The notes beneath the pieces are model-generated. The model was not told the DNA's origin and did no database searches. It worked only from the letters and a program-made list of their open reading frames with translations. The translations under genes and the position numbers were made by a program. Positions 346-37,903 of a DNA stretch of 64,000 nt are shown here, in pieces. Numbering within the stretch: the stretch's first letter is position 1; each line of letters opens with the position of its first letter. The DNA is from a virus. The DNA is taken from positions 64,001 to 128,000 of the IMG/VR virus record IMGVR_UViG_3300033153_009458; one strand, written 5' to 3'.

Positions 346-2895
346 TTAGTACCACTCATCTGTTATTTTGTTTACTCTTTCAGTCTGCCATTTAAGTTTT
401 TCAAATATTCCGTCTAATGGTTTTTTCATTGTTTTTTGAAATTGTGTCTGATAATCAATTTCAATAGCATCTAAAATTTCTTTTGGCATTCTATCAATAC
501 ACGCGATCACATTCGACTTAAAAATATTTGGTTCTTTGATATAAGCGTACAGAATTTTGTCACCTTCGTTAATTTGAGCTTCATCCTCAATTTTAAAATG
601 TTTCAATGCTTTGTTGAAAATCTTACTTGCTCTGACATTGATAGGAACAGATTTTTGACCTAATTGGTATTTTGTCATTCCATTTACACCTGTTGGTCGG
701 GCTACTTGTTCAAACGGCATTTCAAAAAATTCTTTTTTATATTTTTCGATGAAGTCTAAACTCGCATCATTATCATCAGTATCTAGAATAACATTAATTG
801 CTTCCTTAAGTTTATCCCGTACTGTTTTTGGAGTATTTGATCGTACAACTTCTATACCTCTAATCTTCAATGGTAATTTATCAAGATCCTGATCAACACC
901 ATCTTTGTGAATCAATCGCATAATATATCGTTTTTTTGATGCAAATATACTCCGATCTGCAACCGCTTCAAATTCCATAACGTACGTATTTCGACGTAAA
1001 TTAAATGCATTCGCCAAGTCCGCAAAATATGACTTAATTACTGGTTCGACGTTACTCGCCATGTATTCTTTAATAAATTTCAGGATTTCTTTTCTATCGT
1101 CTGAATCACCAAACTTATCACGAATAGTTTTATCCATGTACAAAAAGATCGAATCAGTATCACCGTAAATATTTTTAATATCTGGAAAAGCATCTGTAAT
1201 CGTTTTTTTAGCACCTTTACTACATTGTTGACCAGTGGTTGTGATAGCTGATGCAATTTTAATATTGTAGTATCTTGAACCAACATTAGCTAGAGCACCA
1301 TAACCACTGTTCAGAAAAATTTTAAGTGCCATTTGTTCAACATGTAAAGTTGATTTTTTACTCTGTAATTTTTCAAGCTCATCTTCTGTAAGTGTATTTT
1401 TATTTGCATCGATGTATTGCCCGACCTTTTTCTTGTTGCTTTTTTTCTTTCTTCTTAAATCAAAATCGTGTTTGAACACAACCGGTAAAATACCTTCGAT
1501 GTCTGTTCTAAAAAACTCACCATTCGCCATAACACAAACTTTTTCTTGTTGCATAAGCTGTTTGTATTTTTTTAATTCTTCAATTTCAATAAAAGCAAAT
1601 TCAGCATTTTCCGGCATCCAGTTAATTTTTCTAATTTTATCTTGTAATTCTTTAAGACCGCTCGGTAACTGACTGCTTGGAACTATAGTTTCGGGTGATA
1701 CATTACCACTGATTAATTGATTTGGATAACTCGATACAATATCCCAAACAGAAACATATCTGTACAACCCCGGTATAGGACGTTGTGTATACCCACCCGG
1801 AAATGCTTCTTTTTGAATATTTTTCGGTCTAGGTGGAATAGCGATATCACGTTTTTTTAATTCGTTGTACAAGCGCACATCCCACGGCTTTACAGTTGCA
1901 AAACTGTCTTCATAAAGACTTTTGTTCATGTAAGTAAGCATCATGAACACTTCGAAAAAGTTTCGTTTTTTATCCATTTCTGGAATCAACTCAACATCTT
2001 GAATATTATAATCGATGTACGTTTCGAAATCGTTTTCGTACAACTCACTCAAATTTCGGAATGAATCGTGATAATCCAGTTTGCCTTTTCCTAATTCAGC
2101 ACTAGCGACTGTTTCAAGCCGGTAATTTTCTTGTGGTGTAAAAGACCAGTTCTTGTAAAGGGCCAAATAGTCGGCCATTGTAACACCAACAATATTGAAT
2201 TCAAATTCATTTTTATATAGACGCTCTTTGACTTCGTTCAATGGTGATAATTTGTGATGCATTCCTTCCGGTAATTGCCGCTTGATCCGATTGATTAAAT
2301 ACGGAATATCAAAATCATCAATATACCATCCCGAAATAATATCTGGTCTTTCTTTCCTAAAAAATAAAATAAATTTTTCTAAGAGATCGCATTCATCGTT
2401 GCATTTAAAATATGTTACGTTGTTTGCTTTCGGTTTGTAATCTTCTTTGAATCCGAAAGTATAAAATTGATTTTTGTAATGATCCTTTATAGTGATCGCA
2501 GTCACCGGGTACAACGCTTGACTAGCTTTAGGAAAGCCTTCAGTGCTATGACACTCAATATCTAAAATGAATATCTTGACTTTTGTGTAATCCGGGATAA
2601 TATCATATCTGTATCGATCAGATAAAAATTGGTATTTCGGCTCAATGTCATTGTAAATATCGGTGAACGTATCATTATCACGTCTCCATTTATACATTTC
2701 AGAGATGCTATCAAAATCAATCATGCCGATATTTTGGCCGAACATATCTTTGCATTTAGTTTGCTTACCAACTTTGATACCTAATGAAGGCTTGTACTTA
2801 ATAGTTTCTCTTTTTCGTTGTCCATGTTGGTCAACATAAAAATGAATAAGCGCATTTCCACGTTGAACAACATTTGTATAAAATGGTCGCATCAT
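346..2895 (-). CDS. 43: Family B DNA polymerase (T4 gp43-like)
   Basis: Exonuclease DIEC and YNIQD; polymerase DIVSSYP, KIFLNSGYG, YGDTDS, KKRY motifs; 849 aa. Confidence 0.97.
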   Translation of the reverse strand: MMRPFYTNVVQRGNALIHFYVDQHGQRKRETIKYKPSLGIKVGKQTKCKDMFGQNIGMIDFDSISEMYKWRRDNDTFTDIYNDIEPKYQFLSDRYRYDIIPDYTKVKIFILDIECHSTEGFPKASQALYPVTAITIKDHYKNQFYTFGFKEDYKPKANNVTYFKCNDECDLLEKFILFFRKERPDIISGWYIDDFDIPYLINRIKRQLPEGMHHKLSPLNEVKERLYKNEFEFNIVGVTMADYLALYKNWSFTPQENYRLETVASAELGKGKLDYHDSFRNLSELYENDFETYIDYNIQDVELIPEMDKKRNFFEVFMMLTYMNKSLYEDSFATVKPWDVRLYNELKKRDIAIPPRPKNIQKEAFPGGYTQRPIPGLYRYVSVWDIVSSYPNQLISGNVSPETIVPSSQLPSGLKELQDKIRKINWMPENAEFAFIEIEELKKYKQLMQQEKVCVMANGEFFRTDIEGILPVVFKHDFDLRRKKKSNKKKVGQYIDANKNTLTEDELEKLQSKKSTLHVEQMALKIFLNSGYGALANVGSRYYNIKIASAITTTGQQCSKGAKKTITDAFPDIKNIYGDTDSIFLYMDKTIRDKFGDSDDRKEILKFIKEYMASNVEPVIKSYFADLANAFNLRRNTYVMEFEAVADRSIFASKKRYIMRLIHKDGVDQDLDKLPLKIRGIEVVRSNTPKTVRDKLKEAINVILDTDDNDASLDFIEKYKKEFFEMPFEQVARPTGVNGMTKYQLGQKSVPINVRASKIFNKALKHFKIEDEAQINEGDKILYAYIKEPNIFKSNVIACIDRMPKEILDAIEIDYQTQFQKTMKKPLDGIFEKLKWQTERVNKITDEWY

Positions 2896-2907
2896 ATATT
2901 ATACCTT

Positions 2908-4320
2908 TTACGCCAGATCATCGTCAAATAAAATATCTTTCTCATCACCGTCTTCATCAAATTCATTAATTGCGCCTTTTTTTTGTTGATTTTGATAATC
3001 AAGTCTATCTTTAACAGCCACCGGTATTACTTGCTCAGATTCTTCTAAATCGTATAATGTCATTTTGTGTTTATTAACTCCAACTGTATAGTATTGATCT
3101 ACGTTTGCACCGAACCGAGTTTTTAAAACTTTAAAAACATATTTGTTTTGTTCAGCCATTTCATCATTTTGAAGAATCGACATCATACAATCAAGAGTCA
3201 TCGGAATACCGAATGAATCCGAAGTATCAGTCATTGAACTATCTTTGACTGTTTTCTCTGAACCGGCTCTATTTGTTTGAGTAGCCGTAAGCACTGCTAC
3301 ATTTTCTTCAACTGCAAGTGCTCTAAATTCTTCTGTGATTGCTTTAATATATCGATATGAGTCTGAACCCTGTGAAGCTGGTAATCTACAAGAACTAAAA
3401 ATATTCAGATAATCAATGATAATAACATCTGGTTTAAAATCGTTCTTTTTTAATTTAAGTTCTCGTAAAAAATTCTGAATGTGTAATTTGTTTGCTGTAC
3501 CGGTTGGGTATTCTTTAATCAACAACCTACCCATTTTTTTCGTTGTTAGAATCGACTTGATTCGTTCTTTATAACTTTTTTTACTTAAGTTTATATCGAA
3601 TTGATGCATATCCATATTCAGAATATTTGAGTCAATTCTTTGGTACAACATTTGTTCAGACATTTCACCCGACACGTAAAGAACATTATATCCTTGACGT
3701 GTAAAATCAGCGGCCATATGACAAAGAACAAGAGTCTTACCTATATTTGATCTACCTATGAAAGCCGATATAGTCTTTCTTGGCAAGCCGCCACAAAAAG
3801 CGTTATTAATAGCCTCAACACTTGTTTCGAATTTCTCTTCATCCGATATATAGAAATCATACTGGCTACCATAATCAAACATATATTCCATTCCTAAAGA
3901 ATGTTTAAAATCAATTGATATGGCTTCTTTTACTTTATCGTATATTTGAGTTTGTGATCCTTTTTCATCAATAATTTGAACTGATTCCAAAATAGCTTGT
4001 TTCAAAGATTCTTCTTGAACCCACTTTTCAGTTTCATCAATTACGAATTCTAGATTTTCTTTAATTGGAATTTTCTTTAATCTGTTTAATTCCTTAATTG
4101 TTTGAGCTGTTGAATCTAAATCAATATTTTGATCTCTCTCTAGTAATAATTTTACTTCGTCGTAATCTGGACGCTTCGAATATTTGTCAGTATAAATTTT
4201 TATTTTATCAAGTATGAATCGATACTCTTTATCATCTATTATTTTTTTATCTATGTACGGATATACTATTGAAAAAAATCTATCGTTACTGAGCAAATAA
4301 CTAAAAATAGTTTTTAGCAT
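2908..4320 (-). CDS. 41: DnaB-like replicative helicase (gp41-like)
   Basis: GRSNIGKT Walker A, YVSGEMSE, IKEYPTG, IIIDYLNI, TATQTNR, SDSFGIPMTLD. Confidence 0.95.
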   Translation of the reverse strand: MLKTIFSYLLSNDRFFSIVYPYIDKKIIDDKEYRFILDKIKIYTDKYSKRPDYDEVKLLLERDQNIDLDSTAQTIKELNRLKKIPIKENLEFVIDETEKWVQEESLKQAILESVQIIDEKGSQTQIYDKVKEAISIDFKHSLGMEYMFDYGSQYDFYISDEEKFETSVEAINNAFCGGLPRKTISAFIGRSNIGKTLVLCHMAADFTRQGYNVLYVSGEMSEQMLYQRIDSNILNMDMHQFDINLSKKSYKERIKSILTTKKMGRLLIKEYPTGTANKLHIQNFLRELKLKKNDFKPDVIIIDYLNIFSSCRLPASQGSDSYRYIKAITEEFRALAVEENVAVLTATQTNRAGSEKTVKDSSMTDTSDSFGIPMTLDCMMSILQNDEMAEQNKYVFKVLKTRFGANVDQYYTVGVNKHKMTLYDLEESEQVIPVAVKDRLDYQNQQKKGAINEFDEDGDEKDILFDDDLA

Positions 4321-4326
4321 TTTCTC

Positions 4327-4614
4327 CTATAATTTTATAAAATCCTTCGTTTGTTTCGTTATTTTTATTCGTCTTACTATGTCTTCACCAGACATTTTTT
4401 CTATATCTTGTGGTTTTAAATCTATACTTACTTCGTATGAATTTGGTTTATTCCGTAATAATTGAATATGCACCACAATTTTTTCAACATTATTCCAATC
4501 ATCATTATTATGATCACCGCTTTTGAAAATAATATCCAACCCATCCGGGCCGTACCCAAACGGATTCAATTTATCATAAATCATCTGTATTAAAGGATCG
4601 TCAATAAAATTCAT
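4327..4614 (-). CDS. Small hypothetical protein, C-terminal-motif family
   Basis: Ends QTKDFIKL; ATGA overlap with upstream gene. Confidence 0.8.
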   Translation of the reverse strand: MNFIDDPLIQMIYDKLNPFGYGPDGLDIIFKSGDHNNDDWNNVEKIVVHIQLLRNKPNSYEVSIDLKPQDIEKMSGEDIVRRIKITKQTKDFIKL

Positions 4615-4877
4615 AAATCTAAAAGATCCTTTGCTAATGATGTTGCTTTTACTAAACTTCTCAATTCATCCAACTCGAAATAATCACGGGCTGTTTGATG
4701 AATTATTTTACCTTTTTCGAATATTTCTATTCTTATCTGATCAAGATCATCTATTGTTTCAATCAATCCTGTATAAGTGTTAATTACAAATGACTGAACA
4801 CCTTTATTATACAGAGTTTCCTTTAAAATATCAATAGCTACATCATCAGGTATAACTTGTTTATCTATTTCTCCCAT
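4611..4877 (-). CDS. Small hypothetical protein, C-terminal-motif family
   Basis: Ends LAKDLLDL. Confidence 0.8.
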   Translation of the reverse strand: MGEIDKQVIPDDVAIDILKETLYNKGVQSFVINTYTGLIETIDDLDQIRIEIFEKGKIIHQTARDYFELDELRSLVKATSLAKDLLDL

Positions 4878-5027
4878 TTAATATCCTGTATATGAATTTT
4901 TTCTTGCCGTTTGTGATCGTTTAAGATCTTGTTTATGATGATATTCAGATAATTTGTATCCAAATGTTATTGCTAAAAAATTTGAAATTATATAAATTCC
5001 TATTAAAAGAAGCCATAACCACCACAT
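4878..5027 (-). CDS. 49-aa membrane peptide (not in ORF track)
   Basis: AGGAG SD then MWWLWLLLIGIYIISNFLAITFGYK...; fills the gap, TAAATG coupling to the next gene. Confidence 0.7.
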   Translation of the reverse strand: MWWLWLLLIGIYIISNFLAITFGYKLSEYHHKQDLKRSQTARKNSYTGY

Positions 5028-5036
5028 AATATTCTC

Positions 5037-5285
5037 CTATAAATTGATGAAATCGTACGCACTGCCTTCAATTCTATTGAATCTAAATATTTTTACGTAA
5101 TCATCTTTTGTGTACACTGAATTAAGAATTATTGTTTCGTAACCATCGGTTCTTTTATCGTAATAATGAACAAGTAAAAGTTGATGAACTTCATTCGGGA
5201 ATAATGTTTCCATTTTAACAATAATACAATCACCGAATTCTGTTAAAGCTTCATCAAAAATTGCAATTAACTGTTCTCCTTTCAT
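5037..5285 (-). CDS. Small hypothetical protein, C-terminal-motif family
   Basis: Ends SAYDFINL. Confidence 0.8.
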   Translation of the reverse strand: MKGEQLIAIFDEALTEFGDCIIVKMETLFPNEVHQLLLVHYYDKRTDGYETIILNSVYTKDDYVKIFRFNRIEGSAYDFINL

Positions 5286-5587
5286 TATAACTCCATAAAA
5301 TCGTGTGCGGCCATATGAATCTTAAATTTGGCATCAAGTAAACCCGCCATATCTTGTATGCATCCACCGTTCCAAATTTTCATTTCTTTTCGACTAACCG
5401 GTATTTTAATTTCTACTTTTGGTTTACTTGGAAAATGTAAATAAAAAATTAAATGATTATCCAGTACATCCCTAGCGTACGTAATACCACTCGGAAATAA
5501 TTTGTACTGTCGATTCGCAAAAAAATATGACATTATTTCTCTGTAAATCGGCATTCCTTTCTGAACTGTTATTTCTTTCCAAATCAT
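5285..5587 (-). CDS. Small hypothetical protein, C-terminal-motif family
   Basis: Ends AAHDFMEL. Confidence 0.8.
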   Translation of the reverse strand: MIWKEITVQKGMPIYREIMSYFFANRQYKLFPSGITYARDVLDNHLIFYLHFPSKPKVEIKIPVSRKEMKIWNGGCIQDMAGLLDAKFKIHMAAHDFMEL

Positions 5588-5862
5588 AATTCAATAAGAT
5601 CCTTCGCTGTATAGAATATTGCTGCTTTTCTAAGTTCTTCTATTATTTTATCTAATAAATCAACATCATCGAATTCAACTTTATAAATTTTGAGCGAATG
5701 AGATATACCATTTATTTCATCACGATAAATCATATTTAAATAAGCCGAATCCTTGTATATTTTATTAGACCATTCACAATATCTATAACTGAATCTTGGA
5801 TACTTTAATAAAGCATCATGACAACAAGCCCACACTTCATAAAGATTTCGATCTTCAATCAT
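5584..5862 (-). CDS. Small hypothetical protein, C-terminal-motif family
   Basis: Ends TAKDLIEL. Confidence 0.8.
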   Translation of the reverse strand: MIEDRNLYEVWACCHDALLKYPRFSYRYCEWSNKIYKDSAYLNMIYRDEINGISHSLKIYKVEFDDVDLLDKIIEELRKAAIFYTAKDLIEL

Positions 5863-6113
5863 AGTTCCATGAAATCTGAAGATGTTTGATAGACTCTTTT
5901 TTTTCGAATTTCATTTTCGAACATTTCAGCTGTAATCGAATCAGTATTATCAAAATATAAATGATTAATACTATTATTAAGCTCATCCATATAAATTAGC
6001 AAATACAACCCGTGTGTTGAAAGCTCTGAATCATCTATTTTTCCAAATTGTAAAAAACGAATTCCTTTGCATTTATTCATTGCTTCATAAAAAAGATCAG
6101 ATATATCTTTCAT
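5859..6113 (-). CDS. Small hypothetical protein, C-terminal-motif family
   Basis: Ends TSSDFMEL. Confidence 0.8.
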   Translation of the reverse strand: MKDISDLFYEAMNKCKGIRFLQFGKIDDSELSTHGLYLLIYMDELNNSINHLYFDNTDSITAEMFENEIRKKRVYQTSSDFMEL

Positions 6114-6367
6114 AACGACATTAATTCATTGGCTATTGTGTATCTACGTCTATCTATAATTAATTGTTCAAAATATTCAACCGTTGGTTCACTATCTGAT
6201 TGTACTCTTACAATTTCTAATTCTGTATAATCCGGCCTATAAAGAAAAGTAAGCATTGTGTCTAAATTGTCTATTTCGCTTAAATTTATTGGTACTAATA
6301 CTTCGCACTCGAACGACATATTTTCAATAGCTTTCCAAAAATTATTTTGAATTTGAGTCGCTGTCAT
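6110..6367 (-). CDS. Small hypothetical protein, C-terminal-motif family
   Basis: Ends IANELMSL. Confidence 0.8.
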   Translation of the reverse strand: MTATQIQNNFWKAIENMSFECEVLVPINLSEIDNLDTMLTFLYRPDYTELEIVRVQSDSEPTVEYFEQLIIDRRRYTIANELMSL

Positions 6368-6627
6368 AAATTTGCGAAATCCATCGCATCCATACCAATA
6401 TCAATCCGCCTTGCTGTTTCACCTTTATCGGCTACTAATATTTTGCTTAATTGAATATTTTTATGCACCACAAGAAATTTGCAAGGTAAATCTAATTCTC
6501 TAAATTTTTTTGCTAAATTTTTCATGTATTGTTCAGCTTTACTAGACATCATTCGTCCAGTGTCAACTTCAACAATTAATAAAGTTCCTTCTTCAATTTC
6601 ATCAAGTATTTTTGTTTTAATATTCAT
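6364..6627 (-). CDS. Small hypothetical protein, C-terminal-motif family
   Basis: Ends DAMDFANL. Confidence 0.8.
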   Translation of the reverse strand: MNIKTKILDEIEEGTLLIVEVDTGRMMSSKAEQYMKNLAKKFRELDLPCKFLVVHKNIQLSKILVADKGETARRIDIGMDAMDFANL

Positions 6628-6630
6628 TAT

Positions 6631-6951
6631 TTACTCTTCCATTAAATCTTGAGCTACCTGTAATAAATCCACTCTCGGTTTGAAAAAATTCTTTTTAGCT
6701 TCTTCTAATGCTTTTTCAATTTTTTCTTTGAATATTTTTGGATCTCTCTCATCTTCATCAACTACAATTAATTCTTGAAATTCTGTACCGTCTGAATCAC
6801 TATAACTAAAAAAACATTGGACAGTATCATTGTACCCGTTCATCAACATCAACGGTGTTAAAAAATAAAATTCTTTACAAGCATTCTCTAATAATTCCCA
6901 TGTATCCATATTCATAAACGGATCGACAGTCATTTTATCGTGTTCATTCAT
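6631..6951 (-). CDS. Small hypothetical protein, C-terminal-motif family
   Basis: Ends VAQDLMEE. Confidence 0.8.
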   Translation of the reverse strand: MNEHDKMTVDPFMNMDTWELLENACKEFYFLTPLMLMNGYNDTVQCFFSYSDSDGTEFQELIVVDEDERDPKIFKEKIEKALEEAKKNFFKPRVDLLQVAQDLMEE

Positions 6952-7220
6952 TACATCTCCATAAATGCTTTACCTAATTGTTCAGCTACCTTTTTTCGAA
7001 CTTTCCGAATAATCAATTCTATTGTTACTTTTCGATCAGCTTCGATTGTTATAAAATCACACATACCGTTACCAAAGCCACTTTCATACATATAAAAATA
7101 ACAACAATAACCTTTACTTGGACTATATGTCCTGTATAAAGGAGTAAAATTTTTTAATACTTTTCCAACTTGTTCAAAAACATCAAAATTGTGTAATTGC
7201 AAACTTGTATATTTTTTCAT
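6951..7220 (-). CDS. Small hypothetical protein, C-terminal-motif family
   Basis: Ends LGKAFMEM. Confidence 0.75.
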   Translation of the reverse strand: MKKYTSLQLHNFDVFEQVGKVLKNFTPLYRTYSPSKGYCCYFYMYESGFGNGMCDFITIEADRKVTIELIIRKVRKKVAEQLGKAFMEM

Positions 7221-7510
7221 AACTCAATAAACTCATCAGCAATAGCCAAAAGTAAAGATTTTTTAGCCATTTTGATTATTTCTTTTTCTTTGTATAATCT
7301 TTTAACAGATAATTTCATTTGCATTTCGACTTGGTTTTCATTATGAACAAAATAAATATAATCACCATCAAGAAGTCTAGGACCAATCCCACCTTTAGCA
7401 AGCACTGGATGCATGTTTAATTTTGGTAAACATTCGTACACCAGTGCTCTATTTTTCTTTACAATTTTTCTGTATTTCTGATGAGACTGCCTACGACTTG
7501 CTTGTTTCAT
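7217..7510 (-). CDS. Small hypothetical protein, C-terminal-motif family (start likely ATG 7510, one base after the uvsX stop)
   Basis: Ends IADEFIEL; track start 7564 overlaps uvsX by 53 nt. Confidence 0.75.
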   Translation of the reverse strand: MKQASRRQSHQKYRKIVKKNRALVYECLPKLNMHPVLAKGGIGPRLLDGDYIYFVHNENQVEMQMKLSVKRLYKEKEIIKMAKKSLLLAIADEFIEL

Positions 7511-7511
7511 T

Positions 7512-8681
7512 TCAATCAGAAATTTCGTCTTCTTCTGATTCTTGAATTCGTGCCTGAACGTCATCTTTTATCTCTTTAATATCACTGTCATCAAAAATAC
7601 CATCCGTTGCTGGTTGGTACATAAATAAATTTTTAATATCTTTTTCAAAACCACATTTAAACATTTCATCCCAAATGTGAGGATTAGCGGAACTAAAATC
7701 GGATTCTCTTTTACCTGTGACCCAACCTTTATTTTCTGGTTTTGGTAATTTTTTCTTTTCATCTTCTTTCGAATACGGAACAAATGTTTGTGCATCTGAA
7801 GAATTTTTATACGCTCGCCAACCCTTCTTTGGTGTAATAATATATCCAAGATGCTCACCTAAATCGTACAATCCTGAATATTTACTAAGCCCGTGAGTGT
7901 AATTAATCACTAAACGCACGACCATTTTTTCCTTAGCAAATCTATTTTTATAAGACATACATCTAGCACCAGAACCAATAATGGCTGATGATTCTTCTTC
8001 TTTAGATTTCGTCATAGTAATAATGATACTTGAATTATACTCTATTCCTTTCCCACCCGCAACAACTTCTTTACTAAAAGTATCTAAAGTTGAATATGTG
8101 TGATTTACCGCAATAACTGGAACATTTGATTTCATCGCTGGCATAATTAGTGTACGGAAAAGAGCTTTAATTTCTTTTGCTCTAGTCATATCAGTGATAT
8201 CTTTTCCTTCTCTAGTATCTGCATATTCTTTACTAGAAACTAAATTTCCGATTGAATCAATCACAATCAAAACTTTATCTTTTTTGGTTACTGACTCAAG
8301 GAAAACAACAATATCTGTTTTCAGATCGGATACTTTTTCAACTGGAATATGTATGAATAATTCTGGATCGATACCTCTTGTTATTAATGCATCAGCGTCA
8401 CCGGCACCACCTTCTGTATCGTAATAGAATATGGTGTATCCCTTGGCTTGCGCTTGTTTCATACACTCGATTGCAAGATACGTTTTACCAACTGAAGGCG
8501 GACCAGCAAATTGCATTACTCGACCGGTCGGAAACCCTTTGTTTATATCAGAAGATATAAGGGCGTTAAGAGCTAGATTCCCGGTGGAAATCCATTCTCG
8601 AATAGGGTATTTGTCTTCTTTTAAGACAAATGCGTATTTGTTTGTTGTTTGTTTTAAATATTTTTTAGCTATATCTGACAT
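7512..8681 (-). CDS. uvsX: RecA-like recombinase UvsX
   Basis: STGNLALN, GPPSVGKT, YDTEG, IDSIGNL, DMTRAKEIKALFR, VNHTY. Confidence 0.95.
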   Translation of the reverse strand: MSDIAKKYLKQTTNKYAFVLKEDKYPIREWISTGNLALNALISSDINKGFPTGRVMQFAGPPSVGKTYLAIECMKQAQAKGYTIFYYDTEGGAGDADALITRGIDPELFIHIPVEKVSDLKTDIVVFLESVTKKDKVLIVIDSIGNLVSSKEYADTREGKDITDMTRAKEIKALFRTLIMPAMKSNVPVIAVNHTYSTLDTFSKEVVAGGKGIEYNSSIIITMTKSKEEESSAIIGSGARCMSYKNRFAKEKMVVRLVINYTHGLSKYSGLYDLGEHLGYIITPKKGWRAYKNSSDAQTFVPYSKEDEKKKLPKPENKGWVTGKRESDFSSANPHIWDEMFKCGFEKDIKNLFMYQPATDGIFDDSDIKEIKDDVQARIQESEEDEISD

Positions 8682-8711
8682 TATTTCTCCTAAATTAATA
8701 TATTATTATTA

Positions 8712-8740
8712 ATTATACAGAAAAATATGTCTTAAGTCAA
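8712..8740 (-). promoter_or_regulatory. sigma70-type promoter for the uvsX-array-41-43 operon
   Basis: TTGACT-17-TATAAT upstream of AGGAG SD. Confidence 0.75.
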
Positions 8741-8744
8741 CTAA

Positions 8745-8779
8745 AAGGAAAGAAAGTGGCAAAAGGGGATTGCCACTTC
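8745..8779 (-). terminator. Intrinsic terminator
   Basis: AAGTGGCAA/TTGCCACTT stem followed by T-rich TCTTTCCTTTT on the minus strand. Confidence 0.7.
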
Positions 8780-8790
8780 ATAAGGTGTGT

Positions 8791-9387
8791 TTAATCCCAA
8801 ATTTCAGAAATCATTCCAGCCCAAACAATCTCTTGTACATCTATAAAATCAAAGATCCGTTTGTCTTCCATTCCTCTTGGCGGATCGTGTACAAGAATTT
8901 GTTTACCTGTAATTCTCCACCAATCTGAATTTCCATCTATCAATGTAACACCTAATCCTACAGTATCAATTGTAATTGTAAATCCTGTATTTATATCTAT
9001 AGCATCAGGTGCTCGGCCAGTATTTACTTGTGTTATGACTAAAGTAGGTGGTACAGTGTCTATAGATGTGAATATTCCCGCTAAACCATCAATAGCTATT
9101 TCTAAAGCAGCTGCAACTTCATCATCTGTATCATCTGTTGTTAAAGTAACAGGAACATATGTTACAATTTCTTTTACATCAGGTTGATTTCCGCCGCCAG
9201 CACAATCCATCCAAACACAATATAAAGTATCTGCATTTTCTCGCCATAGGTAAAAATAAGTTCCATCAAGACTACTAGATACGTTTGCAACACACACAAC
9301 ATCAGTAATTTGTGCGGCTGGTGTAGCAATGAATTTGGTTATTGTTTCAACTAAAATGGTTTTATATCCTTGTATTTTAACGTACAT
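8791..9387 (-). CDS. Putative virion structural/decoration protein, paralog 1
   Basis: T/D/G/V-rich; N- and C-termini nearly identical to 9411..10019; related to 19334..20683; function inferred. Confidence 0.65.
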   Translation of the reverse strand: MYVKIQGYKTILVETITKFIATPAAQITDVVCVANVSSSLDGTYFYLWRENADTLYCVWMDCAGGGNQPDVKEIVTYVPVTLTTDDTDDEVAAALEIAIDGLAGIFTSIDTVPPTLVITQVNTGRAPDAIDINTGFTITIDTVGLGVTLIDGNSDWWRITGKQILVHDPPRGMEDKRIFDFIDVQEIVWAGMISEIWD

Positions 9388-9410: not shown

Positions 9411-10019
9411 TTAATCCCACATTTCAGAAATCATTCCGGTCCAAACGATTTCTTCTACATCTACAAAGTCGAAAAGTCGTTTATCTTCCATTCCTCTTGG
9501 TGGATTATGATCAACAATCATTTTACCTGTAATTCTCCACCACACTGAATCAGTACCCGATAAAGTAGCACCAACACCTTCTGTAGTAGTTACCATTGTA
9601 AATCCAGTATTAAAATCAATAGGACTGCTACCCCTTCCATTTGCTTGATATGTTACTGTTACAGGTACGACACCACCACCACTATTAGCCGCCGAATAAG
9701 GTGTACCAGCAATACCATTTAAAGTTGTAACAATAGCATCTGATACATCTTGAGCTGCATCACCACTCGAAATATCAATAGATTCATAAGATGTGAACAA
9801 TTCATTTAGAACAGGTTGATTTCCGCCAACATCTACATTGACCCAAAGACAATAGAATTCTTTATTATTTTCAGACCACATATAGAAATATTTACCATCT
9901 AAATTTCCACCAACATCTGCAATAGGTGTTATAGTGTCAACCTGTGCACCGGGTGTTGCATCAAATTTAGTCATCGTATCAACTAAAATCGTTTTGTATC
10001 CTTGAATTTTTACGTACAT
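9411..10019 (-). CDS. Putative virion structural/decoration protein, paralog 2
   Basis: As above; near-late promoter CATAAATA at 10053-10060. Confidence 0.65.
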   Translation of the reverse strand: MYVKIQGYKTILVDTMTKFDATPGAQVDTITPIADVGGNLDGKYFYMWSENNKEFYCLWVNVDVGGNQPVLNELFTSYESIDISSGDAAQDVSDAIVTTLNGIAGTPYSAANSGGGVVPVTVTYQANGRGSSPIDFNTGFTMVTTTEGVGATLSGTDSVWWRITGKMIVDHNPPRGMEDKRLFDFVDVEEIVWTGMISEMWD

Positions 10020-11778: not shown

Positions 11779-12573
11779 TTATTTCTCCTTGCAATTTAAA
11801 TTATGATATCTTTCAAAATTGTTTATTCCTATTGCTTTTTTACAATAAGGGCATTGTTTTTTAATATATTTTAATCCTAATTTTGCTTTGGACACACTTT
11901 CAGAAATTTTTTGTTTATGTGCATCTGTCAATTTAATACCTTTTTTGCTTTTGCTAATATTTTTTTTATGTTCAGGACTTTTTACTTTACCTTTAGCCGA
12001 TTTGCTCATTTTTATTTTTGTTTCTTCAGAATGTTTTTTACCTAACATATTTTTGTTACCTAATTTCGATAAACTGACATTTTTATTCCATTTTTCTGTA
12101 TGAAAAATATTTTTGTGTGCATTACCAATTTTATCTTTAGTTTCTTTAGAAAAAATTCTTCCTAATGCTTTTTTCTTTATTTTATCTTTTGTTTCATTTG
12201 AATGAACATAACCACTTCTAGTTATTACCGCTTTTTTAATTATATCAGGATGTCTTAAATAAGTCAAATCACGTTGTTTTGCTATATTAGACATTTTTAT
12301 TTTTGTTTCTTCAGAATGTTTTTTACCTAACATAGAAGGTGTTTTATATGTCCTATTTTTTATAATTTGTTTTAATATTTCTTCTTTACCTATTTGACCA
12401 GATAGTGCTTTCCAAGCAAGTTTATCTTGCCAGCGATCATATTCTTCGTACAAATATAAATGCACAGCTGCGTGTCCTGATATTGTTAAATAAACAAGAT
12501 TTGATGGATCGTCGGTACCACCTAAATGCTTAGGAATAATATGGTGTTTGTGTTTATAGATAACATTTATCAT
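11779..12573 (-). mobile_element. Free-standing HNH homing endonuclease with NUMOD3 repeats
   Basis: HKHHIIPKHLGG..NLV.LT..H; MLGKKHSEETKIKMS twice; C-terminal CPYC. Confidence 0.88.
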
Positions 12574-13747: not shown

Positions 13748-14212
13748 TTAATATATTAAATAATTTATAACTTTTTCAAGTATTTCTAAAGTTTCAGTGG
13801 ATTTTTCTTTTTCAAAATGGGCTATCGATGTATTACATCTCATACATAACAATCCACGTATAACTATTTTGTCTTTAATATAATGATCATGATCGACAGC
13901 AAAATCATTACCACTGCTACATTTATTTGTTCCACATATAACACATTTATAATCTTGTTTTTTTAATAAAAAATTATAATCTTCTATTGTCATGTCATAT
14001 TGTTTCAAGTTTCTGATTTTATCTACTTTTTTTACTCTTTCTGCATTTTCTTTTTTCCATTTTTTAATTCGTTTAGGATGGCAAATTATACAATTAGAAC
14101 CCTTTGTAGTTTTTTCTGTTTGTCCACACCATTTACATGGTTTTCCATGATATGTTTTTAATCCTTTTTCAATAGCTTCTTGTTTATTTTTATTAAATTT
14201 TTCATTTCTCAT
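13748..14212 (-). mobile_element. Endonuclease VII-type HNH, probably a free-standing homing endonuclease
   Basis: CVICG...VDHDH...IRGLLCMRCN with N-terminal CKWC/CIIC zinc finger. Confidence 0.75.
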
Positions 14213-26083: not shown

Positions 26084-26158
26084 AGGGGTGTAGCTCAGTG
26101 GTAGAGCATCTGATTCCAAACCAGAGTGTCGAGCGTCCGATTCGTTCCATCCCTGCCA
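26084..26158 (+). tRNA. trnW: tRNA-Trp(CCA)
   Basis: Acceptor AGGGGTG/CATCCCT, D arm GCTC/GAGC, anticodon loop TTCCAAA, T arm GAGCG/CGTTC, G discriminator, encoded CCA. Confidence 0.92.
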
Positions 26159-26243: not shown

Positions 26244-27206
26244 ATGAGCGAAATGACAGAAAACCAAAAACATATTGATAGAAGATTAAACCAAGCAAAA
26301 TTCATCCTTAAAAAATTAGGATTAGCACCAGCACAATGTAATAATCGTTCCGGTTATGTATTTTTAGCTCTTGCAAATGTAACACCAGACAATATATGGA
26401 ATAAAGCTGAATCACGTTTATTACCTATACATCTTATAAATAAATTTCTAAAAAATTATTATAAAAAAGAATATGATCGAGAAAGTATAAGAAAAGACAC
26501 GTTACATCAATTTGAACAAGTACAAATAGTACAACGAAACCGAGACGATCCATTAAGATCTACAAGCAGCGCAAAAAATAATTATTCACTAAATCAGATT
26601 ATTATTGATATTTTACATCAATATCCGGGTGGTAATTGGCAAACAAAACTTGAGAAATATCATATATTAGCCCCGGTACTTGACGCTAAGTACGAAAAAG
26701 ACGTGGATAGTAAAAGAATACCAATAAAATTTCCAGATGATACAGAAATATTTTTATCACCCGGTATGCACAATCAACTTCACGCTGATATTATTCATGA
26801 ATTTTGTACTAGATTTATTGAAGAGGGTGGACATATTTTGTATATTGGTGATACAGCAAGCAGTAGAAATGAAGGTGGGAGATCTCTAATTTTAAAAACT
26901 GAATACTTAAAAAAATTGGGAATTGTTTTGTCATCTCATAGTAAACTTCCAGATGTTGTTATTCACGATGAATTAAAAAACCGGTTATTTATTATAGAAG
27001 CTGTAACTAGTTCTGGACCAGTATCACAAAAAAGACTTTTTGAATTAAAAAAATTATTTTCAAATTGTACAACAAAAATTGAATATATAACAGCATTTCC
27101 AGATTATAAAGAATTCAAAAAGCATATCGCTGATATTGCGTGGGAAACAAAAGTTTGGTTAGCTAGTCAACCTAATCACATAATTCATTTCAAAAATTCC
27201 CTTTAG
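26244..27206 (+). CDS. BsuBI/PstI-family type II restriction endonuclease-like protein
   Basis: RESIRKDTLHQF, LSPGMHNQL, LYIGDT, HSKLPDVV, IEAVTSSGPV, IAWETKVW. Confidence 0.85.
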   Translation: MSEMTENQKHIDRRLNQAKFILKKLGLAPAQCNNRSGYVFLALANVTPDNIWNKAESRLLPIHLINKFLKNYYKKEYDRESIRKDTLHQFEQVQIVQRNRDDPLRSTSSAKNNYSLNQIIIDILHQYPGGNWQTKLEKYHILAPVLDAKYEKDVDSKRIPIKFPDDTEIFLSPGMHNQLHADIIHEFCTRFIEEGGHILYIGDTASSRNEGGRSLILKTEYLKKLGIVLSSHSKLPDVVIHDELKNRLFIIEAVTSSGPVSQKRLFELKKLFSNCTTKIEYITAFPDYKEFKKHIADIAWETKVWLASQPNHIIHFKNSL

Positions 27207-27259: not shown

Positions 27260-27997
27260 ATGACAGAGATCAATAGATTTTCATTTAGTAGTCAAGAGAT
27301 TGATATCTTGACCAATTTTCAAGTAATTAATCCGTCTTTAGTATTCAAAGGAACAAAACTAGAAACTGAAAATGAATCAGGATCAGTAAGTGGTTTTTAC
27401 AATTTTGATAAAGATAAAGAATTTGGTGAGTTTGGAATATACTTACTTCAACAGTTCATTACGATTTTAAAAGAAATGAACGATCACGCTTTAGAAGTAA
27501 AACCAAGCGAACGAGAAGTAATTATTCACGATCAACTTAATAAATCAAAAACATCTTACAGAACAACACCGGTTGCTGATAGTGGAATGTTCAAAGATAT
27601 CAAATATCCAAAAAGCTTCAGTTCACAGCCAGAAGTAATCGATATTATTTTCCGGGCTGATAAGATCGCTCAGTTAAGAAAAATTGGTGATATTATTGGA
27701 TTTGATTGTGTGTACATCAATACAGAAATAAACGATATTGTTAGGTTCATCGGGGCTGATGAAGACCGACAGAACACCGAGAATGCGTACGAAGTAGAGA
27801 TCAACGAGATTGATGTCAAAACAAACGCACTCGATGAAACTCTTGTTATTAAACGACCAGAGTTTAACATGTTGCTTCCGGGGTACGATTACAGACTGAT
27901 AGTTGCGAAGTCCGCTAAGGGTAATTACATGACCAATTGGAGTAACGTAGGAATAAATTCTTTAGAATATTTTATAGGTATAGGAAAAGAAGACTAA
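27260..27997 (+). CDS. 45: Sliding clamp (gp45-like)
   Basis: ILTNFQVINPSL, EFGIYLLQQF, LLPGYDY, LEYFIG; precedes gp44. Confidence 0.85.
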   Translation: MTEINRFSFSSQEIDILTNFQVINPSLVFKGTKLETENESGSVSGFYNFDKDKEFGEFGIYLLQQFITILKEMNDHALEVKPSEREVIIHDQLNKSKTSYRTTPVADSGMFKDIKYPKSFSSQPEVIDIIFRADKIAQLRKIGDIIGFDCVYINTEINDIVRFIGADEDRQNTENAYEVEINEIDVKTNALDETLVIKRPEFNMLLPGYDYRLIVAKSAKGNYMTNWSNVGINSLEYFIGIGKED

Positions 27998-28938
27998 TGA
28001 AAGAATTCTCAATTTGGACGGAAAAATACAGACCACAAAGAATAGAGGATTTGATAGCTTCGGATGCGTTAACGAGTTTTTTACAACAATTAAAAATAGA
28101 TCAAAATTTGCCAAATTTATTATTTAGTGGATCGGCTGGTACAGGTAAAACAACAACAGCCAAGGTCATTATTAATGAACTGAATTTGACAAGAGCGTTT
28201 CGATTTTTAAATTGTTCAATGGACACATCAATTAATGATATCAGAAATAAAGTTAAAGGATTCGCTTCAACGTATTCTTTAGATGACAGTAACATTAAAG
28301 TATGTGTCCTTGATGAAGTTGACAGACTATCTCCACAGGCTATGGACTCTCTAAAGGGTTTTATTGAGGATACTTACAAGATATGTAGATTCATTTTTAT
28401 CACAAATCATCTATCCAAAATAATACCACCGTTGCTATCGAGATTGCAACATTTTTCTTTTGGTGATTCTATCGAAGACGCCCAAAAAATAAAAAAGAAA
28501 ATGCTTGCTCGATCATTTGATATACTGAAAGAAGAAGAAATAGAATTTGATTTAGAAGTAACATGGGATATTGTACAAGAACTTTATCCAGATTACAGAG
28601 CTGTTATTAACTCTTTACAAAAAGCATCAAAGGCTTTTGGTGAGATTGATGAACGTGCTATAAATATACTCGACAGCTCGAAAATAAATGAAGTAATAAA
28701 AGTTTTAAAAGATAGAAAATATTCTCATATGCGTGACCTTGCATCTCGACTAGATCCGAGTGGATTTTACGGTGCATTTTATGAACACATGGAATCGATT
28801 TTACAAGATTCATGTAAACCTGATATAATATATATACTAGCTAAAGGTTCTACGGATATGGGTGTAGCTGTCTATAAGGAAGTTGTACTATTCGAATCTT
28901 TATTAAGTTTAGCTAAAGCGGCAACATGGAAAACATAG
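27997..28938 (+). CDS. 44: Clamp loader AAA+ subunit (gp44-like)
   Basis: WTEKYRP, GSAGTGKTT, LDEVD, CRFIFITN, LLSR, YPDYR. Confidence 0.95.
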   Translation: MKEFSIWTEKYRPQRIEDLIASDALTSFLQQLKIDQNLPNLLFSGSAGTGKTTTAKVIINELNLTRAFRFLNCSMDTSINDIRNKVKGFASTYSLDDSNIKVCVLDEVDRLSPQAMDSLKGFIEDTYKICRFIFITNHLSKIIPPLLSRLQHFSFGDSIEDAQKIKKKMLARSFDILKEEEIEFDLEVTWDIVQELYPDYRAVINSLQKASKAFGEIDERAINILDSSKINEVIKVLKDRKYSHMRDLASRLDPSGFYGAFYEHMESILQDSCKPDIIYILAKGSTDMGVAVYKEVVLFESLLSLAKAATWKT

Positions 28939-29288
28939 AAGAAGATGCAAGGGATTTAACGCTTGTTGATGATATAACAGTTTGTACAGGTGAAAGAACA
29001 GATAAGCAATACTGCAATAAAAGCGGGTTGTTACTATCGATTTACAACAAAAAAATATTCGTGATGAAATTAGGTGATAATAAAATATCTATTTCTTTTT
29101 CGGTTTTGTTGAATCATCAAGAATGCTCAAAAATATTATTAAATTTAGTTAAAAAATATGACATAGAACCCGAAGAAGATTTTATGTATCACAATGAAGC
29201 GGGTCATGTTTTTGGATTAGAAAATATTATGTCTTACGCAAGAACGGTCAATAAAATGCATACATTAAAAAAATATGACATCAATTAA
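28926..29288 (+). CDS. Hypothetical protein inserted between 44 and 62
   Basis: 120-aa ORF overlapping both neighbours. Confidence 0.6.
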   Translation: MENIEEDARDLTLVDDITVCTGERTDKQYCNKSGLLLSIYNKKIFVMKLGDNKISISFSVLLNHQECSKILLNLVKKYDIEPEEDFMYHNEAGHVFGLENIMSYARTVNKMHTLKKYDIN

Positions 29289-29661
29289 AAAGTCACCGTT
29301 TGATTTTGTTAAGTCGATCAATAATAAAGAATACATCGAAGATATAAAAGGTTTTTCCCCTTATATTGTGACTAATGCTTTGAGTGCTAATAAATTGAAT
29401 GTCTTAGCAATCAACGCAATTAACAACATTGGTGCTGGTAAACTATCAGATCGGGCTATCTATGATTATTATTATCATTTAGTCCGTCAAACAGATAAGT
29501 ATTACCCGTATCCGAAATCTGTAAAAGATTCAAAAAATTTAGAATACATAATGAAGTATTTTCAACTGAACGAGCAAACCGCAAAGAGTTATCTAGAACT
29601 ACTGGAGACAGAAGAAATTGAAGAAATTCGATCTTTTTATGAAGACCACGGCGTAAAATGA
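29275..29661 (+). CDS. 62: Clamp loader small subunit (gp62-like)
   Basis: SPFDFVKSIN, FSPYIVTNALS, YDYYYH, IMKYF...AKSYLELL. Confidence 0.85.
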   Translation: MTSIKKSPFDFVKSINNKEYIEDIKGFSPYIVTNALSANKLNVLAINAINNIGAGKLSDRAIYDYYYHLVRQTDKYYPYPKSVKDSKNLEYIMKYFQLNEQTAKSYLELLETEEIEEIRSFYEDHGVK

Positions 29662-35868: not shown

Positions 35869-36162
35869 ATGGAAAAATATTATTATTTTTTTTATGGAAT
35901 TGATTCTGGTCCGAGTGCTGGTGTATGGATGAATAAATTTGAAAACACTGATAAAGGATCTTCATACTACCTTTGGCAAAAACCCGCTGAAGATTGTTCT
36001 GATGATGATTTAATTGATTGTTTTAGGTATATTAAAAATCAAAGTAATTATAATGCCCAATGGAAACAAATACACGGAAAAACTCATTTCGAACACTGCA
36101 AAGAAATCCTACCTGAAAGTAAAAAATACATTATACATATTCTTGAATTTATAGACTTATAA
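35869..36162 (+). CDS. Early hypothetical protein
   Basis: 97 aa, ends ILEFIDL. Confidence 0.7.
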   Translation: MEKYYYFFYGIDSGPSAGVWMNKFENTDKGSSYYLWQKPAEDCSDDDLIDCFRYIKNQSNYNAQWKQIHGKTHFEHCKEILPESKKYIIHILEFIDL

Positions 36163-37082: not shown

Positions 37083-37903
37083 ATGGTAAATTTTTTATAT
37101 TTGTTTAGAGAAGAACACACTTATTCTGATGATGATCCGAGATATTATGTTCGATCAGAAAAAAGATTTCGTGAAATTACACCAGAAATTTATGATGGTT
37201 TTTTAGATCGAATTTCTGAAAATGAATCTAAAATGGTTATCAGAGACGATGATGCTGGTTATAATACAGTAACAACGTTTTTTGAAGATTTTCATTTTTT
37301 ACCATTAGAGTGTTTAATTGACATCATGAAAATATATCATGAAGATTACCATAATTCTTTTTCTCTTATTAAAAAAACCTTATTTAAATAAAAGGAAAAA
37401 TGTGGATTAAAATCTGTGATCATTGTCAGAAACCATTCATTGATGGTGGATGGTTTCTGAATCTCAATAATGACAAAAAAAATCCGCTTAAATACGACAT
37501 GCATTTTCACAATGATTGTTTTTTGCTTTCTGATAAGGTGCCGAACGATCAGAAAATTGCAGCTGTTAAAGAGCATCCAGAAAGATACACAAATTTAAAT
37601 AAACTCACAGCCCCGTACGAATTAATGGATTTATAGGAGAAAAAAATGCCATCTAACAACGAAATAGATTATACAGATAAACACGCTTTTATGGATATTT
37701 TGGATTATGAATTTAATAGTTTTTTAGAAAGATATAAAAATTATGGTGGCGAATTTATATCCAAAGAAGAAATGAGAGGTATTTGTCATGGTTTATATTT
37801 AGCAAAAAAAGATTTCAAGAGTTTCTTTTATGAAATCAAAGATAAAAAACCGTACAAGAAAAGGCATCCGAGATCCTTTCATATCCCGTGGATAAAAAAT
37901 TAA
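37083..37903 (+). CDS. Three early hypothetical proteins (37083-37391, 37400-37636, 37646-37903)
   Basis: SD-preceded ORFs; 37400 has CDHC/HNDC and ends APYELMDL. Confidence 0.7.

Follow-up and report, generated by a model that had tools for sequence, protein, structure and literature searches.

Docking tails that are common to a few clients of one hub are a textbook arrangement, and the bacterial beta-clamp motif, QL[S/D]LF or QLxLxL, is one hydrophobic peptide, often C-terminal, that recurs on many unrelated clients. In T4, the hydrophobic, acidic C-termini of gp43, gp33, and gp55 bind the sliding clamp gp45 and are interchangeable (PMC2988020). Here we describe a short C-terminal peptide of seven residues, hereafter the tail, that ends eleven small proteins encoded in tandem between the uvsX and gp41 genes of an uncultured phage, as well as many further small proteins of the same genome. 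The stretch of DNA analysed (the window; 64,000 nucleotides, nt) covers bases 64001-128000 of the 151,141-bp single-contig IMG/VR record IMGVR_UViG_3300033153_009458, which is estimated to be 88% complete; positions are those of the window unless they are given as genome positions. The source virus is a deep-branching T4-like phage with a G+C content of about 31%.

A common tail in the array, the genome, and related phages

We detected eleven co-oriented minus-strand open reading frames (ORFs) between uvsX and gp41 (Table 1), and the ORF calls agree letter for letter with the tails listed in the preliminary description of this locus. Two details of the array's make-up differ from that account: the array includes a tail-less ORF of 49 amino acids (aa), and the most likely start of ORF11 is 7510, right after the uvsX stop, rather than 7564. 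The array tails follow the pattern [A/S/T/G]-x-[D/E]-[F/L]-[I/M/L/A]-x-L-COOH, with variants in ORF9 and ORF10. Counted back from the last residue (-1), the typical tail has D/E at -5, F/L at -4, I/M/L at -3, and L at -1, often with E/D/N at -2. Seven of the array junctions are ATGA overlaps and two are overlaps of 1 nt, the rest being gaps of 3-9 nt. The eleven ORFs are real small genes and are apparently co-transcribed with uvsX, gp41, and gp43; the order on the minus strand is promoter, uvsX, array, gp41, and gp43.

The tail extends well beyond the eleven-gene array to which it had initially been ascribed. A strict form of the motif, [AST]x[DE][FL][IML]xL, ends 12 of the 295 called genes and is found at 1 of 46,186 internal positions, an enrichment of about 1900-fold, and leucine is the C-terminal residue of 26% of small ORFs compared with 7.8% leucine overall. 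The proposed profile scan of the genome's C-termini recovered far more tails than expected: with a position matrix trained solely on the eleven array tails and then scored on the other C-termini of the 151-kb genome, 15 non-array C-termini reached at least 4 bits (0.56 expected from internal positions) and 11 reached at least 6 bits (0.20 expected). Examples from outside the array include ..YELINL, ..WEFMRL, ..YEFMNL, ..REFMEL, ..WELANL, ..LEFIDL, and ..YELMDL. A looser pattern brings the total to 38 tail-bearing small ORFs, all of them in early-type regions at genome 20-30, 43-50, 60-72, and 99-102 kb. By region, the tail was present on 16 of 33 small ORFs at genome 20-30 kb, 8 of 28 at 40-50 kb, and 12 of 21 at 60-72 kb, with two further tail ORFs on the plus strand near genome 100 kb; the same whole-genome count found no looser-pattern tail among the small ORFs of the late regions. 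Many tail proteins carry a cap-like S/T-x-x-E pattern ahead of the tail, and a longer form can be written as [P/L]-[T/S]-x-x-E-x-x-A-aromatic-[E/D]-[L/F]-x-x-L-COOH, which resembles an amphipathic helix with an N-cap.

The tail is also spread across the clade. The closest UvsX proteins are 48-51% identical to that of the study phage, and three related uncultured T4-like contigs carry dozens of tails, one of them in a dialect of its own. This contig, scaffold_198 (ENA ERZ23498525; loci L006, L011, and L015, 34.5 kb covered), has uvsX, three small ORFs, and gp41, followed at some distance by about 17 consecutive small tail ORFs directly upstream of gp43; by manual count, about 35 proteins in the 34.5 kb end in a tail. 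Its dialect (PKLELMLV, PKLKLMLL, PALDLMQI, PKIDLMRI, TLDIFDI, ILDIMNL) follows the pattern [P/A]-K-L-x-L-M-x-hydrophobic. In a second contig (L007), members of family A, a group of paralogues described below, end in ..EMMAFL and ..EMIAFL. The third, IMG/VR contig 3300033153_008411 (L020), was recovered with a degenerate DNA pattern of the tail, and about 15 of its 21 small ORFs (manual count) end in the dialect of the study phage. These include four proteins with two hydrophobic helices (..EFMKL, ..EFMHL, ..AHDFMEL, ..DFQEL), and L020 also encodes helical bodies with P-T-x-x-E-x-x-A-x-x-L-G-x-L.

As a control, Pelagibacter phage HTVC008M had a hydrophobic ending on 1 of 25 and 2 of 22 small ORFs, which is near the internal rate and thus no enrichment, and the T4 small ORFs within the 26 kb examined have no common tail. 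The tail-bearing proteins themselves have no detectable orthologs among the related phages; therefore, the bodies turn over fast while the tail persists. A gp41-based search for related loci in viral contigs returned none, and tblastn with one family A member and one L020 tail protein against 50,697 phage records gave no match.

Selection on the tail peptide and variety of the bodies

The tail has to be weighed against a by-product of translational coupling, in which the last codons of each gene are set by the Shine-Dalgarno (SD) sequence and ATGA start of the next. Coupling has left its mark: TTATGA, which encodes leucine and a stop, is found at seven array junctions, ATGGAG (Met-Glu) doubles as a well-spaced SD at three, and A is enriched at the third base of the last codon (0.76 bits). 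Of the 57 genes with an overlap of 1 or 4 nt into their downstream neighbour, 13 also end in the core motif, compared with 3 of 113 that are followed by a gap of more than 15 nt. Yet it is absent from the other 44 overlapping genes, including those coupled in the late cluster (genome 114-120 kb), and tails also precede gaps of 26, 58, and 87 nt and one convergent gene end. The distance from tail to downstream start is not fixed, and at junctions with a TAG stop plus SD the tails sit about 10 nt further from the next ATG. The AT-rich relative HTVC008M, as noted above, has no such enrichment.

The codons point the same way. Leucine at -1 is encoded by TTA, CTA, CTG, or CTT, the small residue at -7 by GCN, TCN, ACN, or AGT, and the acidic residue by GAT, GAC, GAA, or GAG; positions -7, -5, and -4 lie outside any SD window, yet vary synonymously. 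Over the last seven codons, information amounts to 4.3 bits at codon position 1, 5.8 bits at position 2, and 1.75 bits at position 3, a distribution that follows in part from choosing the set by amino-acid pattern. Position -7 was not used for selection, and its small residue gives a second-base C signal of 0.57 bits compared with 0.08 bits at the third base. Because third positions are free, some tails have no following gene, and most ATGA-coupled genes are tail-less, SD/ATGA coupling does not explain the tail: it shapes a few positions (-3, -2, and the last base) without accounting for the rest. This reading is largely refuted, and we regard it as extremely improbable; the tail thus withstood the test by coupling constraints that the preliminary description had set for it. 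Selection acts on the tail peptide.

The bodies ahead of the tail match little that is known. The array proteins had no Pfam match above the curated cut-offs and weak PHROGs matches, and the same was true of ten other proteins, mostly tail-bearing. A search of 5.8 billion proteins with ORF5 found only itself, and an ESM Atlas feature search with the same protein gave scores of at most 0.77, which serve as leads only. The bodies had been described as eleven unrelated ones; instead, most of the array looks like a single diverged family. Eight of the eleven ORFs align on a pattern of helix, three strands, and helix, and this alignment, together with a model of ORF6, suggests that they are diverged tandem paralogues. 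Within the genome, body-only phmmer and a hidden Markov model iteration did not link the array members to each other, and body-only phmmer did not link them to other tail-bearing proteins.

The ORF6 model was built in AlphaFold2 with the array paralogues as alignment (predicted local distance difference test, pLDDT, 82; predicted template modelling score, pTM, 0.67). It has helices at residues 4-14 and 62-83 and strands at 18-26, 36-43, and 48-55, with the tail as the last two turns of the long C-terminal helix; the hairpin-like strings noticed earlier in several array proteins map to the second strand. Fold searches with this model gave no informative match (Foldseek against PDB, E at least 0.12; VIA-align, Z at most 5.8; BFVD, E at least 0.016), nor did a PDB search with the family A model (E at least 1), and this lack of a match does not demonstrate a new fold in either case. 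Family A comprises about a dozen tail-bearing paralogues at genome 24.6-29.8 kb. Its model (pLDDT 82) has a beta-rich domain and a separate terminal helix, residues 64-74, directly after the last strand; here too, the tail makes up the final two helical turns. The nearest Atlas shapes are DUF551- and DUF3310-like phage domains, and in these look-alikes the aligned stretch mostly stops at residue 63-67, before the tail. When array and family A profiles were compared with hhalign, only the last 12 columns aligned (~i~~~A~dfMEL with k~E~~a~el~~L).

Because the modelled folds of ORF6 and family A differ and only those last 12 columns align, the tail is modular. On the question raised previously of one fold or many, structure prediction gives more than one (alpha-beta-beta-beta-alpha in ORF6, beta-rich in family A), although most array bodies share one pattern. 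The earlier proposal of a portable, peptide-level feature on variable bodies is borne out by these two modelled folds and by Cys/His-rich bodies and, in the relative L020, two-transmembrane-helix bodies that carry the tail. Cys/His-rich tail proteins are encoded at genome 21492, 43215, and 101400, and a 146-aa and a 121-aa protein are likewise tailed. A single paralogous family that had kept its tail by descent was considered and rejected, as homology of the bodies is not detectable across all tail-bearing proteins.

The body of ORF8 is of another kind. Over residues 19-43 it shares 60% identity with residues 277-301 of the portal protein that the phage itself encodes (43284-44828, minus strand; pairwise E 3e-8), and this stretch also matches Pfam Portal_T4. 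The common tail may here be joined to a captured fragment or to a mimic of a portal segment. A likeness to another structural protein was seen elsewhere: the 146-aa tail protein (..REFMEL; genome 47198-47638, outside the window) has a weak match to Pfam Gp23, the major capsid protein, at residues 17-48, and scaffold_198 has a 149-aa tail ORF (L006:11360-11809) with a precomputed PF07068 match. BLASTP found no similarity between the 146-aa ORF and this 149-aa Gp23-like ORF.

Candidate readers of the tail

The tail is anchored to the C-terminus, uniform over unrelated bodies within a genome, and different between related genomes, and because of this combination we read it as a docking motif for one partner. 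We lean, if only slightly, towards some common reader of the tail. The tail would then be a portable docking tag, with the hydrophobic residues at -4, -3, and -1 and the free carboxylate plugging into a hydrophobic pocket of the shared partner. The best current candidate for this partner would be the phage's own sliding clamp gp45, so that the variable bodies would be delivered to clamp-loaded, replicating phage DNA in the manner of gp43, gp33, and gp55 in T4. We infer both docking as such and the identity of the reader, and we put forward the assignment to gp45 as a tentative one that may well prove wrong.

Several observations are consistent with gp45 as reader. The LDFL-type tails that the preliminary description named for T4 gp43 and gp55 are present in both sequences (..SLDFLFG and ..SLDFLYEAND). 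RB69 gp43, according to its sequence record, ends in ..SLFDMFDF, which has the register of the array tail x-D-F-M-E-L, with an acidic residue at -5, hydrophobic ones at -4, -3, and -1, and an acidic or polar one at -2. The clamp of the study phage was first found by BLASTP to HTVC008M gp45, and a clamp profile built from 65 homologs in an exhaustive search matched RB69 gp45 (1b77) at 8e-38 and T4 gp45 at 1e-33; the Pfam gp45 models failed to detect this protein, and a word-based homolog search with it found only itself. The proposed co-folding of tail and clamp was run on the gp45 trimer with full-length ORF6, with alignments supplied for both, and it gave a weak pass: three scores of 0.56, 0.56, and 0.59 compared with 0.00 in all three controls, with contact agreement of at least 92% and a partner pLDDT of at least 69 across the runs. 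When the score was calibrated, 58 of 80 solved complexes and 2 of 110 mismatched pairs attained the mark, but only 7 of those 80 complexes, plus both of the mismatches that passed, did so with a score of 0.60 or under. The pass may reflect likeness to solved gp45-peptide complexes alone; in the RB69 gp45-peptide structure described in PMC2988020, the peptide occupies the C-face pocket of the clamp.

A number of findings weigh against the clamp. The gp43 tail of the study phage, ..ITDEWY, is unique in the genome, no other protein having this type. The polymerase tail type is conserved (..NLEEWF in scaffold_198, ..NLEDFF in HTVC008M) whereas the tails of the small proteins switch dialect, which one shared pocket would not predict. 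The gp55 C-terminus, ..NTDQIKI, fits only in part, with D at -5, I at -3, and I at -1, and the gp55 C-termini of the relatives are not conserved; no gp33 was identified in the study phage. The T4 gp55 epitope hangs on a flexible linker (PMC2988020); in the ORF6 model the tail extends a packed helix. A clientele of thirty to forty proteins, membrane proteins among them, would be unusual and without precedent for a clamp. Lastly, the co-folding pass lies in the weak band, and its score comes without an interface position.

The tail may instead be an address tag for a reader other than gp45, such as the host beta clamp, a host AAA+ protease or adaptor, or another hub protein of the phage, which we judge rather unlikely. 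If a protease were involved, the tail could act as a C-terminal degron that times the life of early proteins, or as an adaptor tail that hands bound host targets over for degradation. The arguments for a common reader all hold here too, and a strictly C-terminal position is what recognition of a free carboxylate would lead one to expect. The conserved, distinct polymerase tail and the changing dialects of the small proteins fit a separate, faster-evolving reader. The scaffold_198 dialect resembles the pentapeptide QL[S/D]LF of the bacterial beta clamp, but the glutamine at the first position of that motif is absent. Membrane proteins in L020 are tailed, and if their tails are cytoplasmic, as they may be, the reader would have to reach soluble and membrane proteins alike; FtsH-type proteases reach both. 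On the other side, the tails appear helical and are acidic, unlike ssrA-type ..LAA degrons, and an ssrA-type degron for ClpX/ClpA, of the form ..(L/V)AA-COOH, was rejected, as no tail ends in AA and the last residue is nearly always leucine. A membrane-targeting helix was rejected as well, the acidic residues at -5 and -2 arguing against membrane binding. Propellers are common peptide-docking hubs, and a 673-aa early-region protein with a Reg_prop beta-propeller repeat match (genome 30751-32772, outside the window) is encoded next to the largest cluster of tail genes, that at 20-30 kb, on its transcriptionally upstream side. This makes it a putative candidate for the tail reader.

Two further explanations dispense with a separate reader. 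The tail could be a helix-capping element that stabilizes small domains, spread as ORFs that are swapped in by junction recombination acquire their final 20-30 nt from the gene already in place. The tail of the ORF6 model does end a 22-residue helix that appears to belong to the fold, and the S/T-x-x-E pattern ahead of many tails resembles an N-cap, as the G-x-L ending of some resembles a C-cap. Within 4300-7600, gene junctions form pairs with 72-89% identity over 19-31 nt (such as 4319-4349 with 5029-5059, and 4608-4635 with 5581-5608), which could provide the microhomology for a shuffling of cassettes; cassette exchange is known from the PeSL cassettes of T4-type phages. However, the freedom of third codon positions means that conservation does not lie in DNA identity, and a tail that is uniform over unrelated folds in one genome and takes another dialect in a related genome needs a shared constraint. 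A purely structural cap need not end exactly in Leu-COOH in nearly every protein, and the proteins closest in structure to family A leave its tail uncovered. We therefore consider a tail with no reader quite unlikely, though the junction pairs fit cassette exchange as a route by which new bodies acquire a tail, whichever reading holds. It is less probable again, and very unlikely, that the tails bind each other and form homo- or hetero-oligomers through a shared amphipathic C-terminal helix. The modelled helix is amphipathic with a conserved hydrophobic face, and many tail proteins would be expressed together from the same operons, but a stable coiled coil needs more than two helical turns and the strict C-terminal anchoring would be left without a reason.

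Genomic context and comparison with known systems

Among cultured phages, the closest relatives by gp41 are cyanophages, Caulobacter phage Cr30, and Sinorhizobium phages, at only about 36% identity to the gp41 of the study phage, and HTVC008M gave the only DNA-level match outside uvsX. The features discussed here are collected in Table 1.

Table 1. Positions in the window of the tail-bearing ORFs and of the replication genes and signals around them.
Feature	Position	Strand	Remarks
gp43 DNA polymerase	346..2895	-	C-terminus ..NKITDEWY
gp41 replicative helicase	2908..4320	-	directly downstream of array; ends ..DILFDDDLA
ORF1	4327..4614	-	95 aa, tail TKDFIKL; stop TAG, then SD of gp41
ORF2	4611..4877	-	88 aa, tail AKDLLDL; ATGA overlap with ORF1
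Tail-less ORF inside array (twelfth)	4878..5027	-	49 aa; one hydrophobic helix
ORF3	5037..5285	-	82 aa, tail AYDFINL
ORF4	5285..5587	-	100 aa, tail AHDFMEL
ORF5	5584..5862	-	92 aa, tail AKDLIEL
ORF6	5859..6113	-	84 aa, tail SSDFMEL; modelled as a1-b1-b2-b3-a2, tail ending helix 62-83
ORF7	6110..6367	-	85 aa, tail ANELMSL
ORF8	6364..6627	-	87 aa, tail AMDFANL; different body
ORF9	6631..6951	-	106 aa, variant tail AQDLMEE; GGAAGAG is SD of ORF8
ORF10	6951..7220	-	89 aa, variant tail GKAFMEM; GGAG is SD of ORF9
ORF11	7217..7510	-	97 aa from ATG at 7510 (115 aa if from 7564), tail ADEFIEL
uvsX recombinase	7512..8681	-	first gene of operon; PF00154
Sigma-70-like promoter TTGACT-17-TATAAT	8712..8740	-	upstream of uvsX
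Terminator-like hairpin	8753-8779		promoter of uvsX sits just downstream
gp45 sliding clamp	27260..27997	+	candidate tail reader; adjoins gp44 and gp62
gp44	27997-28938		near gp45
gp62	29275-29661		near gp45
Tail ORF outside array	35869..36162	+	97 aa, ..LEFIDL; 87-nt gap to next gene
Cys/His-rich tail ORF outside array	37400..37636	+	78 aa, ..APYELMDL

Several other features of the window were observed. Within the array, ORF1 contains a terminator-like hairpin of 13 pairs (4538-4566, minus strand) and ORF2 a strong sigma-70-like promoter match (4834-4806), which are possible internal regulatory sites ahead of gp41; an Rfam scan of 2800-9000 gave no match. The acidic and hydrophobic C-terminus of gp41 recalls docking tails of the SSB and T7 gp4 type, and the gp41 of a relative ends in ..YDKELQFD. 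Upstream of uvsX lie two tandem paralogues of about 200 aa (8791-9387 and 9411-10019, minus strand) that start MYVKIQGYKTILV.. and end ..EIVW.GMISE.WD, and homologs of these, some of 319-347 aa, occupy the same position in the related loci L005, L006, and L007. An HNH/NUMOD3 homing-endonuclease gene (11779-12573) and an endonuclease VII gene (13748-14212), both on the minus strand, are situated inside the recombination module. Just upstream of the clamp gene is a full-length BsuBI/PstI-type restriction endonuclease gene (26244-27206, plus strand; Pfam E 8e-54 and 1e-33), and a tRNA-Trp gene is present at 26084-26158 (plus strand). A search across genome contigs with the PstI-like nuclease as query found no relative.

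In a literature search we found no description of a genome-wide library of small orphan proteins with one common tail. It is possible, though doubtful, that this T4-like lineage runs an address-tag system on the scale of the proteome, in which about 1 in 6 small proteins would be directed to a single hub, whether the clamp or another reader. The carriers would have unrelated folds, membrane proteins included, and one genome-specific C-terminal plug, a picture that we hold with the same reserve. If so, the phage could call in, or get rid of, an entire class of host-takeover proteins together, and new genes would join the class by insertion ahead of an existing tail. Should the reader be the sliding clamp, the T4 toolbelt would expand from three clients to dozens and would link host-takeover functions to replicating DNA; should it be a protease or other hub, the tag would be an undescribed signal for sorting or timing across the phage. 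In large phages, the majority of early genes are orphans without a handle, and a common tag would give one handle for at least 26 of them. In bioinformatic terms, the tail also identifies these ORFs as real genes that make up one functional class.

Among described systems, the gp45-binding epitopes of T4 and RB69 are the most similar, as they too are short hydrophobic and acidic peptides at or near the C-terminus that are portable between unrelated proteins, and the genes of these clamp clients likewise sit among replication genes. T4 has three gp45 clients (PMC2988020), compared with 26 to 38 tail proteins in the study phage, nearly all of them small and without an assigned function. Unlike in T4 and RB69, the polymerase of the study phage ends otherwise (ITDEWY), and in place of the flexible linker of T4, the two tails that were modelled are predicted to lie in helices (residues 62-83 in ORF6 and 64-74 in family A).

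The bacterial beta-clamp motif shares with the study tails the use of one short hydrophobic peptide by many unrelated proteins. It differs in that position -7 of the study tails is A/S/T/G rather than Q, in the spacing (hydrophobic-hydrophobic-x-hydrophobic), in the extra x-hydrophobic-COOH that follows, and in the carriers, which are phage orphan proteins and not DNA enzymes. The K-L-x-L-M of scaffold_198 comes closer to this motif, but is also without the glutamine. The ssrA ..LAA degron and the ClpX-binding tail of SspB are C-terminal signals for AAA+ proteases, and the study tail is like such degrons and adaptor tails in its extreme C-terminal position, its portability, and its capacity to mark a whole class of proteins, though we know of no degron that it resembles in sequence. 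The capsid-targeting sequence of T4 offers a comparison within a single phage, being one short peptide on unrelated bodies that works as an address label. That label is N-terminal, is carried by late proteins, and is cleaved by the prohead protease, whereas the tail described here is C-terminal and belongs to genes of the early-type regions, being absent from the late ones.

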